From Geoalkalibacter ferrihydriticus DSM 17813 (lineage in GTDB: Bacteria; Desulfobacterota; Desulfuromonadia; Desulfuromonadales; Geoalkalibacteraceae): 32,000 nt of DNA. The notes under the pieces were generated by a model. The model made no database searches and was not told the origin of the DNA. It saw only the letters and a list, made by a program, of their open reading frames with translations. The position numbers and the translations under genes are program-made. Positions 17,571 through 19,681 of this stretch are shown here, piece by piece. Positions within the stretch are counted from its first letter, which is position 1. Each line of letters starts with the position of its first letter. The stretch lies in the NCBI RefSeq assembly GCF_000820505.1, contig NZ_JWJD01000004.1, forward strand, positions 96,955 through 128,954. The letters run 5' to 3'.

Positions 17571-19681
17571 ACCAGGATGCCCTCGACATCAAACTAAACG
17601 ACGTCTTCTTCGGCAAGGTGGTGCGCAAGGATCTGCTCCTTCAGGTAAAAAAGGGGACCAACGTTCCATCCTTCGTGCTGGAATTTCTTCTGGCTCGCTA
17701 CTGCGCCAGCGATGATCCGCGAGAGATACAGGAGGGGATGGCTGCGGTTCTGGAGACCATTCAGAAGAACTACGTGCGCCCCGACGAGAGCAACAAGGCG
17801 CAGATGATCGTTCAACAGAGGGGCAAGCACACCTTCATCGACAAGATCCACGTCAAATATTTTGAGAAGGAGAAGCGGCCTTGGGCGCGGATGGAGAATT
17901 TCAATTCCTCACGCATCGCTATAAACGATCGCTACTACCAATCTGAAAACGACCGCATCTTCGAAGGGGGGATCTGGGCGGAGTGCACCGTTGCCCACAA
18001 CGATGTTGAAGATGACCCTTATGCCTTCTACATCGAAAAGCTTAAGCCGATCCAACTTTCCAGGTTTGATTTCGATGGGTTCGTGGAGGGGCGCAGGCAG
18101 TTCACCCGGGACGAGTGGATCGATGTACTGATCCGCTCGTTTGGCATTGAGCCGAGCTGGATGAGTCCGCGCCTGAAGTTTCATTATCTGGCCCGACTCG
18201 CTCCCTTGGTGGAGGCGAACTTCAACTTCATCGAGCTGGGTCCGCGCGGGAACGGGAAGTCCTACACTTTCAGCGAGTTCTCACCTTATTCGACGTTGCT
18301 CGGTGCACCGACCTCTGCCGCAACACTCTGGTGGAATAACGGCCGCAAGCAGGTTGGAATTATAGGCTTTTGGGACGTAGTGGCTTTTGATGAGGTCGGC
18401 GAAGGGATCGTGGTGCGAGATCGCGAGACCTTTCAGGTGATGAAGCAGTACATGGCCAACGGCAATTTCACCCGATCTTCCTCAATGGTTACGGCGAGCG
18501 CCAGCTTGGCTTTCATCGGCAATATCGATGATGCGATTGAGTCGGTGGTCAACTCCCCTGAGCATTCGCTCTTCAAGCCTCTGCATCCAGTATTCGATCT
18601 GGCCATTCTGGACCGTTTCCATACCTTCGTTCCCGGCTGGGAGATTCCGAAGAACAAAGACGAGAACCTGACCCGCAATTACGGTTTGATAATCGAATAC
18701 CTGGCCGAGGCATTTCACCATCTCGCCCGCAAAACGAACCGTTTCGCCCAGGTGAAGGCTGCCTGCAAACTCGGCCCCGGCTATGACCAGCGGGACCAGA
18801 CGGCCGTGCTGAAGACCGTCTGCGCTTTCGTCAAGATGCTCCATCCGGGCGACGAGCCGACCCAGGAGGAAATCAACGAGTATCTCGCCTATGCGATCGA
18901 AGGGCGGCGGCGGGTGAAGGAGCAGCTCAACAAAAAGAAGCCGGACGACGAGTTCGCCAATATCAACCTCGGTTTCTACGCACCCGACGGGCAGTTGATT
19001 ACGGTCTTCTGCCCCGAATCGCGTTATGCCGACGCAACCCAGAACCCCTCACGCAGCCGGGCGCAGGAAGAAGAGGATGAGACTGTAGCTGCTAAGCCCG
19101 CTACTGTACAGCCACCTCCAGGGGCCTTTCCTCCGCCGGAGGCTCAACCTTCGGCCTTACCGGAGCCCGTTGCCTCAGAGCAGACGGAAGCCCTTGCCGC
19201 TAATAGAAGCGAACCGAAGGAGCGGCACTATCGAATCCATTACGGAGCAATCGGGCATTCCTACGAGAGCATCTTCGGCGACTACCTGCCTGGAGCAGAG
19301 GAGATCGTCATCGAGGACCCCTATATCCGGCAAAATCATCAGATCGGCAACTTCTTGCGCTTTTGCGAAACGGCCGTTCGTCTAGGCAAGCCGAAGCGTA
19401 TTGTCCTGATCACGAAGTTTGACAACCAGTTCGAGAAGGACGAGGCGATGGCAAAGCTGTTTTCCATCGCCGACAGTCTGAAGCAGCTTGATATATCTTT
19501 GGAGATCAAGGAAAACGCAGCCTTGCACGATAGAGAGATAAGGCTGAGTAACGGCTGGACCTTAAAGATCGGGAGAGGTTTTGACATCTACCAGAAACCG
19601 GACGATTGGTTCCAGATCGGCGCAAATGACCTTTTTCTTAGACCGTGTTTGGAAACGAATGTGGACGTGATTCCGCGGTAG
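17567..19681 (+). CDS. brxL: BrxL-like AAA+ protein with a non-canonical C-terminal MIT_C/PLD-like domain
   Basis: 704 aa. The BrxL-type N-terminus is [45 protein letters not shown]. Walker A [11 protein letters not shown], Walker B [10 protein letters not shown]. The C-terminal ~150 aa ([19 protein letters not shown]...[21 protein letters not shown]...[11 protein letters not shown]) matches my memory of the MITD1 C-terminal domain, not a Lon protease domain. Confidence 0.8.
   Translation: [704 protein letters not shown]

Follow-up and report, generated by a model that had tools for sequence, protein, structure and literature searches.

The BrxL protein encoded in the window, the 32,000-nt stretch of Geoalkalibacter ferrihydriticus DSM 17813 that was analysed (contig NZ_JWJD01000004.1, positions 96,955 to 128,954), ends in a MIT_C domain in place of a Lon-protease-like C-terminus. 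This architecture is already known, having been published in 2025-2026, and it is common; the protein described here is a member of the HKD-endoDNase / MIT_C variant group, without essential differences from it. The mechanism by which BREX stops phages is unsettled, and a BrxL with its own predicted nuclease would offer direct experimental access to the effector step. The kinship of the domain with human MITD1 adds another eukaryotic protein that shares a module with bacterial immunity, and it raises the question whether MITD1 is an enzyme. Both points appeared in print in the same years, and the value of the locus lies in one more example, within a compact and complete operon that can be cloned.

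A BrxL at the end of a type-1 BREX operon

The BREX genes of the window are the following.

5491-6024, + strand, brxE (BrxE_fam 5e-44)
6014-6805, + strand, brxA (BrxA 5e-27)
6786-7385, + strand, brxB (BrxB 3e-12)
7403-11023, + strand, brxC (BREX_BrxC 7e-211)
11026-15057, + strand, pglX (BREX_1_MTaseX 1e-229, exceeding the model's own cut-off)
15054-17570, + strand, pglZ (PglZ domain 1e-14)
17567..19681, + strand, brxL, 704 aa plus stop codon (from the list of open reading frames)

The genes brxE, brxA, brxB, brxC, pglX and pglZ all lie immediately 5' of brxL on the same strand, and brxL, with a 4-nt overlap with the pglZ stop codon, closes a complete type-1 BREX operon. An NCBI protein from G. 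ferrihydriticus labelled 'ATP-dependent Lon protease' has exactly the sequence of its product (100% identity). The product scored 447.5 bits with the NCBIfam model TIGR02688 (cut-off 329.3), and the PADLOC BrxL model PDLC02508 covered residues 4-702, the full length of the protein, with an E-value of 6.6e-235. The open reading frame at 17567-19681 is the BrxL of the common TIGR02688 / PDLC02508 branch of type-1 BREX.

Domain architecture of the protein

Four parts of the protein and the two Walker motifs were located as follows.

17603..17995, + strand, N-terminal domain (BrxL_N), residues 13-143 (Pfam PF20442, E 6.4e-39)
18026..18967, + strand, MCM-like AAA+ ATPase domain (BrxL_ATPase), residues 154-467 (Pfam PF13337, E 3.8e-107)
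18233-18265, + strand, Walker A, residues 223-233 (read from the translation)
18377-18406, + strand, Walker B, residues 271-280 (read from the translation)
19049..19216, + strand, linker rich in Ala, Pro, Glu and Thr, residues about 495-550, 56 aa (alignment and AF2)
19223..19678, + strand, MIT_C domain with a predicted PLD-superfamily fold, residues 553-704 (Pfam PF16565, AF2, Foldseek)

BrxL_N consists of an HTH-like domain and an OB fold (PMC12839542). The Walker motifs are intact (GPRGNGKS, 226-232; VVAFDE, 271-276) and unchanged across 60 homologues. The BrxL hallmarks that a sequence-only reading of this DNA had named, Walker A and Walker B among them, were thus recovered in the translation as well as by the Pfam matches to BrxL_N and BrxL_ATPase.

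In the alignment of BrxL homologues, sequence conservation stops at P494. The linker varies in length between 38 and 83 aa among the 60 homologues (median 54), and its column conservation is 0.15, whereas the N-terminal domain plus ATPase reach 0.92 and MIT_C reaches 0.83. AF2 predicted residues 498-547 at a pLDDT of about 30 and without secondary structure; the full-length model was poor (pLDDT 62, ATPase core below 50), probably owing to a shallow alignment, and was used for the linker only. Pfam gave zero matches over residues 468-552. The low conservation and pLDDT agree with the disordered linker proposed earlier, the coordinates of which were nearly right: the linker moved from nt ~19021-19225 to nt 19049-19216, and the start of the following domain from nt 19226 to nt 19223 (residue about 553).

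The C-terminal domain matched Pfam MIT_C (PF16565) over residues 563-702 and profile positions 1-141 of 142, with an E-value of 1.9e-46 and a score of 157.9 bits (cut-off 25), much too strong for a chance match; taken in isolation, it scored 162.6 bits. No Lon_C was found in the brxL product by Pfam at E<=0.01. The Lon-type model TIGR02653 reached a score of 517 against its cut-off of 628 and aligned only with its positions 2-466 of 675, and the match to the Acinetobacter BrxL 8EMC by phmmer (E 8e-117) was limited to residues 2-470. All of this upholds the earlier claim that MIT_C replaces the Lon-like C-terminus. An N-terminal MIT domain like that of MITD1 is absent by Pfam, and BrxL_N and the ATPase are found there instead. 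The part of brxL that codes for MIT_C has a somewhat lower GC content (0.49-0.52 versus 0.54-0.60), a difference too small to argue for a recent acquisition of the domain.

Kinship with human MITD1 and a possible membrane role

The collinearity with human MITD1 had initially been put forward by the sequence-only reading. It was confirmed by BLASTP (46% identity over 151 aa, E 1e-45) and by phmmer against the MITD1 structures 4A5Z/2YMB (E 2e-36). The structure prediction pointed the same way: the AF2 model of the domain had a pLDDT of 95, and its top matches in Foldseek were the same two human structures, with TM 0.92-0.93 and rmsd 1.3-1.4 Å, followed by the PLD-family protein F13 (E 4.5e-3). 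In a viral structure library, the best matches were PPK-C or 'PLD phosphodiesterase' proteins (E 1.6e-4 to 5e-3). With PLD-family proteins other than MITD1 matched too, the model places the domain in the PLD superfamily at the level of the fold.

A relationship this close could mean that the domain binds or cleaves phospholipids as in MITD1. BrxL would then either be anchored to the inner membrane at the point of phage DNA entry or attack the membrane in an abortive-infection response. We consider such a role quite unlikely, even though the identity, a TM of 0.92 to the MITD1 domain and the phospholipase D fold itself speak for it. The literature documents membrane binding and dimerisation as roles of the MITD1 C-terminal domain, and the membrane binding, needed for abscission, has experimental support. 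Hadders 2012 is said to have traced this binding to a basic and aromatic loop (human DYFKKPQSRF). The YFKKP of that loop corresponds to YQKP in the BrxL studied here, which makes the loop less basic, and Q676 is invariant in 54 bacterial domains. The domain is also mildly acidic (median pI 5.5), and neither net charge nor pI discriminates between DNA-binding and membrane-binding roles. To our knowledge, no MIT_C domain has phospholipase activity, which counts against a membrane module as well.

Invariant residues and departures from the HKD motif

Three conserved stretches stand out within the domain, all taken from the family alignments.

19313..19369, + strand, conserved block, residues 583-601, including D584, Q592 and N595
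19526..19534, + strand, H654-D655-R656 ('HDR'), counterpart of HxK in the PLD HKD motif
19565..19585, + strand, KIGRGFD, residues 667-673, after beta6

Eleven residues (D584, P585, Q592, N595, T616, H654, R656, G663, R670, G671, D673) were invariant down to 25% identity in a comparison that took in human MITD1, several BrxL clades, stand-alone proteins and fusions with dynamin and with IF2_N. Because these residues persist across architectures to such low identity, they suggest that the domain has a functional pocket and is more than a scaffold. D584, Q592 and N595 are the same in every architecture compared; H654 and R656 are invariant in 12/12 divergent sequences and throughout two family alignments of 54 and 60 sequences; within KIGRGFD this holds for R670, G671 and D673. 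Further polar residues are fixed within the family (E583, R588, E601, Q676, D688, R692, C694, E696). Li et al. (NAR 2025, gkaf357) count the acidic residue that follows beta2 as part of the putative active site.

Where the HKD signature is HxK(x)4D(x)6G[SG]xN, the sequence reads H654-D-R656-(x)4-S661-N...K-I-G-R-G-F-D. Lys is thus replaced by Arg, the motif Asp by Ser661, the latter being Ser in 58/60 family sequences, and GSxN by GRGxD. From the order of secondary-structure elements in the AF2 model we infer that KIGRGFD occupies the place of GSxN in HKD enzymes. The stretch HDR(x)4[D/S]N aligns with HDK(x)4DN of Nuc, HDR standing opposite H94-D-K96 in the sole stretch aligned by hhalign; this comparison of the family profile with Nuc was not significant (probability 0.6%) and is of use only for residue pairing. 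Pfam PLDc and PLDc_2 gave no match to the isolated domain even at E<=10.

A variable C-terminus and a possible role in the pairing of rings

Sister BrxL proteins carry Schlafen, Ser/Thr kinase, TIR, HEPN or PIN domains in the position of MIT_C. The closest relative of the ATPase at 50% clustering, P0241 (66% identity), has a Schlafen tail, and MIT_C tails occur at three or more points of the ATPase tree. Both observations support an exchange at this position, the domain swap that the sequence-only reading had proposed, and the comparison supports a view of the BrxL C-terminus as a swappable slot. In NsnC of the Menshen system, a related domain, PB-PLD1, takes turns with nucleases (Li et al., NAR 2025, gkaf357). 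The targets of the other occupants of the BrxL slot are nucleic acids, NAD or proteins, which is at odds with a membrane module. A bacterial protein (L006) in which MIT_C is fused to a dynamin-like GTPase, an enzyme that remodels membranes, argues for one.

Two representatives with double tails, P0242 (MIT_C+SLFN) and P0276 (LonC+SLFN), place MIT_C and Lon_C in the same proximal position before Schlafen. In Lon-type BrxL, the C-terminal domain is proteolytically dead and is joined to the ATPase by no more than a short segment, open to proteases, at about residue 500; its demonstrated role is ring dimerisation, with pairwise contacts between C-terminal domains that join heptamer or hexamer rings tail-to-tail. 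MIT_C might therefore be a non-catalytic replacement for this domain that couples BrxL rings tail-to-tail, or neighbouring subunits, with its conserved polar residues serving the fold, an interface or an allosteric ligand instead of catalysis. The PLD-like domain of MITD1 is described as dimeric, which fits such pairing, as does the departure from the strict HKD motif; because of this departure, both the pairing of rings and the binding of membranes stay live as rivals. Nevertheless, we regard a pure pairing function as unlikely. A disordered tether of 38-83 aa is poorly suited to a rigid ring-ring interface, and eleven invariants to 25% identity, with a His-x-Arg among them where PLD enzymes have their catalytic residues, exceed the usual needs of an interface. 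Moreover, type-4 BrxL and many others work without a C-terminal domain, the tail being shorter than 60 aa in 26/66 BrxL representatives.

Occurrence in genomes and in the literature

Architectures were surveyed by plasmid tblastn, among 50%-cluster representatives and in a genome scan. A protein-collection search with the isolated domain returned only short proteins (<=272 aa), many of them fragments from short contigs, and was unusable for this purpose. Relatives of the domain are encoded by at least 568 species genomes. The same architecture was present in 120/120 closest homologues, and the identical continuous fusion in 71/80 species-level loci. Among the 80 closest genomic occurrences of the domain, 74 were fused to the DNA clamp, which again weighs against a membrane module. 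The domain was not fused in the remaining 6, three of which represent a frameshifted brxL, and these stand-alone genes were accordingly rejected as proof of an independent module. A few loci lack any BrxL remnant (L001/L041, L003, L044, L073).

Stand-alone MIT_C reading frames in some records and frameshift-fragmented brxL genes in some could indicate that two genes were read as one in the window, or that the contig is chimeric. The chance of such an annotation or assembly artefact is negligible, and we reject it: the frame is unbroken for 704 codons, an identical protein exists at NCBI, and the counts of continuous fusions given above together with the full-length PADLOC model refute it for practical purposes.

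The architecture has been described in two papers, by Li et al. (NAR 2025, gkaf357) and in a recent survey ('Expanding the landscape of BREX diversity', NAR 2026, gkag035). The survey found MIT_C-tailed BrxL in 1030 of 2913 BrxL-bearing type-1 systems, about 35%, and named the same tail 'HKD-endoDNase' with an HRD motif. The rarity implied by the sequence-only reading is thereby contradicted. Its remark that the domain would be ordinary if most canonical BrxL proteins ended in it applies in part, the architecture being widespread. This locus and its genus are not named in gkaf357, gkag035 or those of their supplements that were searched. The experimentally studied BREX systems that we checked in plasmid records were all Lon-type.

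A possible effector function

The protein combines a DNA-encircling MCM-like AAA+ module (residues 1-494), a long floppy linker and a single PLD-fold MIT_C domain. We tentatively favour, at somewhat less than even chances, a reading of MIT_C as an effector that dimerises and acts as a PLD-fold phosphodiesterase, probably on DNA, and that is delivered by the BrxL DNA clamp. The ATPase ring would load onto unmodified invading DNA as in Lon-type BrxL, the only type for which ring assembly on DNA, a DNA-dependent ATPase and a need in phage restriction are known. After loading, the tethered MIT_C domains would pair and form a metal-independent phosphodiesterase site with H654 as the nucleophile and R656 in place of the HKD lysine, to which D584, Q592, N595, R670 and D673 may contribute. 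Nicking or cleavage of the clamped DNA at this composite site would provide a second effector beside PglZ, and the pairing of MIT_C domains may also stand in for the ring-to-ring pairing by the Lon-like domain. Single-HKD PLD enzymes such as Nuc and BfiI act as dimers in which two motifs are brought together.

The occupants of the slot in sister BrxL proteins, PB-PLD1 in NsnC, the disordered tether and the DNase prediction in the literature count for an effector. The departures from the HKD motif, the missing PLDc and PLDc_2 matches and the non-significant profile comparison with Nuc count against it, as do the documented MITD1 roles in membrane binding and dimerisation, and the dynamin-like GTPase fusion points to a membrane role; the proximal place shared by MIT_C and the non-catalytic LonC fits structural pairing equally well. 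We know of no MIT_C domain with a reported enzymatic activity, and early BREX work reportedly found that phage DNA was not degraded. An enzymatic role for the domain has been raised before (Li et al., NAR 2025, gkaf357), and an active HRD-type HKD DNase has been predicted (Li et al., NAR 2025, gkaf357; NAR 2026, gkag035).

In its most specific form, the proposal is that the domain is an active H-x-R phosphodiesterase gated by dimerisation, in which the domains of one ring or of two rings pair and cut the clamped phage DNA. To us this appears doubtful. If it were true, about a third of type-1 BREX systems would have a built-in nuclease. By homology, with 46% identity and nearly all family invariants shared, human MITD1 would then also have an enzymatic pocket that has escaped notice and that descends from a bacterial domain of the BREX type.

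Comparison with known systems

Lon-type BrxL (TIGR02653; 8EMC/8EMH; E. coli HS, Salmonella, pEFER) has a homologous N-terminal domain and ATPase and is likewise encoded by the last BREX-1 gene. It differs in its inactive Lon-protease-like C-terminal domain that pairs the rings, which is replaced here by the linker and MIT_C. The single-HKD nucleases (Nuc 1BYR, NucT 6EHI, BfiI, Zucchini) resemble MIT_C in the alpha/beta PLD fold and in a His-x-(Lys/Arg) opening the fifth strand with (D/S)N four residues on, and they must dimerise to complete a single active site. Neither sequence nor profile comparison shows a significant similarity to them, and MIT_C has Arg for Lys, lacks GSxN and possesses the extra invariant D584, Q592 and N595.

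With human MITD1, the domain shares nearly all invariants of the bacterial family, including ED, HQ, N, HDR, NGW, KIGRG-D and R-C-E. MITD1 differs in that its own N-terminal MIT domain binds ESCRT-III and the protein acts in cytokinesis at membranes, whereas the partner here is a DNA-clamp ATPase of phage defence. PB-PLD1 of NsnC is similar as a MIT_C-like PLD domain with a site made of D/E after beta2 and HDR, and it too lies in a defence protein, at a C-terminal position where the effector varies.

The HKD-endoDNase / MIT_C variants of BrxL have the same HTH-like domain plus OB fold, MCM-like AAA+ module and MIT_C with HDR/HRD, and they likewise follow pglZ. Within this group, the G. ferrihydriticus protein is distinguished by Ser661 at the position of the motif Asp, which is a trait of its clade, and by its long linker of 56 aa.

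Domain architecture of BrxL

The brxL gene and the Pfam domains of its product were located as follows.

17567-19681 (+), brxL ORF, 704 uninterrupted codons, with a start overlapping the pglZ stop by 4 nt
BrxL residues 13-143, BrxL_N (E 6e-39)
BrxL residues 154-467, BrxL_ATPase (E 4e-107)
BrxL residues 563-702, MIT_C (PF16565; E 1.9e-46), full-length, profile positions 1-141 of 142

The sequence-only reading had proposed that a MITD1-type domain replaces the Lon-like C-terminus of this BrxL, which was borne out by the Pfam, NCBIfam, structure-sequence and BLASTP results. No match to Lon_C was obtained in the Pfam search. 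Among the NCBIfam models, TIGR02688, a BrxL model of 449 positions ending after the ATPase, gave a score exceeding its cut-off, while the Lon-type model TIGR02653 aligned with only the first 466 of its 675 positions and stayed below its cut-off. In the sequences of solved structures, the match to Acinetobacter BrxL (8EMC) was limited to residues 2-470, and residues 553-702 matched human MITD1 (4A5Z, 2YMB; E 2e-36), with 46% identity over 151 residues in BLASTP. Hence, the motifs given in the sequence-only reading were correct. The 100% identical database entry, a Geoalkalibacter ferrihydriticus protein, is annotated as 'ATP-dependent Lon protease'. The same three Pfam domains were found in all 120 closest database homologues and the PADLOC BrxL model PDLC02508 spans the whole protein; that this architecture is an artefact is extremely improbable.

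Across 60 homologues with 78-87% identity, residues 1-494 had a column conservation of 0.92 and residues 551-704 one of 0.83. The segment between them reached only 0.15; it is 38-83 residues long (median 54), and Ala, Pro, Glu and Thr abound in it. In the full-length AF2 model, which was otherwise poor and used for the linker alone, residues 498-547 lacked secondary structure at a pLDDT of about 30. The isolated MIT_C domain was modelled with a pLDDT of 95 and superimposed on MITD1 with a TM score of 0.92-0.93 and an rmsd of 1.3 Å. The structural matches following MITD1 were PLD-family proteins, namely vaccinia F13 (E 4.5e-3) and phage proteins annotated as polyphosphate kinase C-terminal domain or PLD phosphodiesterase (E 1.6e-4 to 5e-3). 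The variable, disordered linker, the domain model and these PLD-family matches give good support to a C-terminal half consisting of a floppy tether and then a compact PLD-fold domain, as the sequence-only reading had rightly interpreted it.

Spread of the variant and previous reports

When genomes were scanned, one for each species, at least 568 were found to encode relatives of the MIT_C domain, belonging to Pseudomonadota, Desulfobacterota, Verrucomicrobiota, Planctomycetota, Cyanobacteria, Chloroflexota, Spirochaetota, Acidobacteriota and others. The best 80 loci comprised 74 BrxL fusions, three frameshifted brxL genes and three stand-alone genes. In a plasmid collection, the BrxL ATPase occurred in 314 records and MIT_C in 24; there, Lon-type BrxL was present in every one of the studied hosts (E. 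coli, Acinetobacter, Salmonella, pEFER). The variant was already covered by Li et al. (NAR 2025, gkaf357), and a 2026 survey (NAR, gkag035) lists, as one of three BrxL versions, a form in which an 'HKD-endoDNase' with an HRD motif replaces the Lon-like domain, in 1030 of 2913 BrxL-bearing type-1 systems. Our literature search found no experimental work on it. Being common, published and modelled in databases, MIT_C BrxL is not unusual and counts as already known. What remains of interest is the biochemistry of MIT_C, along with incidental findings, among them the broader range of domains at the BrxL C-terminus.

Genomic context

Six same-strand genes 5′ of brxL were assigned by Pfam and NCBIfam to brxE, brxA, brxB, brxC, pglX and pglZ; brxL thus closes a complete type-1 BREX operon, which lies within a defence island. 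PglZ (15054-17570) scored far under every NCBIfam PglZ cut-off, the best model being of the BREX-6 type (135 bits, cut-off 400) and BREX-1 type A reaching 91 against 270. PglX and BrxC, unlike PglZ, pass type-1 or BREX cut-offs, and brxE precedes brxA. Either this PglZ is divergent or the system is a mosaic.

The region 5′ of BREX (88-5260) carries defence genes, with Wadjet represented by its 3′ portion:

88-1221, JetC-like SbcC Walker B protein (Wadjet)
1221-2411, JetD (Wadjet)
2501-3478, PDC-S21/DUF4917 SIR2-like gene

The 425-aa ORF at 3983-5260 had no significant family match in Pfam, NCBIfam or PADLOC. Convergent with brxL, a 323-aa ORF (19793-20764, -) has a clearly lower GC content (0.40-0.47 versus about 0.55) and matched nothing in Pfam, NCBIfam, PADLOC or PDB sequences. 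A Tn7-like tnsA-tnsB-tnsC-tnsD/tniQ set (20923-27366) lies directly downstream of BREX. Its 725-aa TnsB (21864-24041) was matched by no Pfam or NCBIfam model and by Tn7 TnsB (7PIK) with E 1.7e-43. The cargo of Tn7-like elements usually sits downstream of tnsD. At that side, a 175-aa ORF (28409-28936, -) was weakly matched by the Pfam model of the PARP catalytic domain (25.8 bits, slightly below the cut-off of 26.7; E 9e-6).

The C-terminal slot of BrxL

Full-length representatives of 50%-identity clusters (n = 66) were classed by the region after the ATPase.

Regions following the BrxL ATPase in 66 representatives; those with two domains are counted under each class
Nothing (tail under 60 aa): 26
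Lon-like: about 21
Schlafen AlbA_2: 8
MIT_C: 6
Ser/Thr kinase: 4
HEPN (HEPN_Swt1): 2
TIR: 1
PIN: 1

Two-domain tails included MIT_C+Schlafen, Lon+Schlafen, Lon+HEPN and Lon+PIN. Since the closest ATPase relative of our BrxL (66% identity) has Schlafen in place of MIT_C, and MIT_C occurs at no fewer than three positions in an approximate ATPase tree, the C-terminus is a repeatedly exchanged slot. As most domains that fill it are enzymatic effectors, an effector role is favoured for MIT_C. This reading is complicated by two facts. The Lon-like CTD of Acinetobacter BrxL has no catalytic activity, its role being a pairwise CTD-CTD contact that joins two rings tail-to-tail, and in two-domain tails MIT_C and Lon share the proximal position. 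That MIT_C is a purely structural pairing module we consider unlikely.

The slot variants were seen in the ATPase cluster representatives P0241, P0242, P0253, P0254, P0268, P0274, P0275, P0276, P0298 and P0311. As only three BrxL versions are listed in the main text and supplement index of the 2026 survey, the others may be under-described.

MIT_C outside BrxL

MIT_C also ends an IF2_N-containing protein of 349 aa on a Paenarthrobacter plasmid (L005:6440-7489) and a 947-aa dynamin-like GTPase on a Thiodictyon plasmid (L006:4574-7417, WP_100923113.1). The latter fusion is reminiscent of the setting of MITD1 in membrane remodelling and, together with the MITD1 literature, speaks for a membrane or phospholipid module as in MITD1, a role that we regard as quite improbable in BrxL. 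Stand-alone genes with 56-58% identity to the BrxL domain, lacking a BrxL remnant upstream, were found directly 5′ of a QatABCD defence operon in Alcaligenes sp. AB3 (L003:8001-8513) and within an integrase-rich island of Lacipirellula limnantheis (L001:8001-8681).

Human MITD1 (residues 89-252) is 45% identical to the clade of our BrxL (19223-19678) and only 28-35% to the other BrxL MIT_C clades. In an approximate NJ tree with MITD1 as its one eukaryotic sequence, it fell beside this clade, inside bacterial diversity, with weak bootstrap (83/200), consistent with a possible acquisition of the domain by eukaryotes from a BREX-type bacterial source.

Conserved residues and comparison with HKD enzymes

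Twelve MIT_C domains were aligned, from four BrxL clades, the dynamin-like GTPase and IF2_N fusions, two stand-alone genes and human MITD1. Down to 25% identity, 11 residues are invariant (D584, P585, Q592, N595, T616, H654, R656, G663, R670, G671, D673); E583, R588, E601, Q676, D688, R692, C694 and E696 are also fixed within the BrxL family. The fixed residues are mostly polar and sit at helix starts and strand ends, a pattern that looks like a phosphate-binding or catalytic pocket. The domain identities, the fold, the tether, the pattern of conservation and the modular slot are shown by these data; dimerisation within BrxL, catalysis and the substrate are inferred. We propose as the most likely reading, with a confidence somewhat short of even, that the BrxL AAA+ ring would clamp invading DNA and that the tethered MIT_C domains would pair into a metal-independent H-x-R phosphodiesterase site damaging the clamped DNA, in addition to PglZ. 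Such pairing may also stand in for Lon-mediated ring coupling.

MIT_C does not qualify as an HKD nuclease, since no PLDc model matched it even at E<=10 and the strict signature is absent: the Lys of the HKD motif is Arg, its Asp is Ser in the query clade (58 of 60 sequences), and the GSxN of HKD enzymes is GRGxD. It may still act like such an enzyme. A single stretch was aligned by profile comparison with the single-HKD nuclease Nuc (probability 0.6%, not significant), in which H94-D-K96-(x)4-D101-N102 of Nuc is collinear with H654-D-R656-(x)4-S/D661-N662 of MIT_C.
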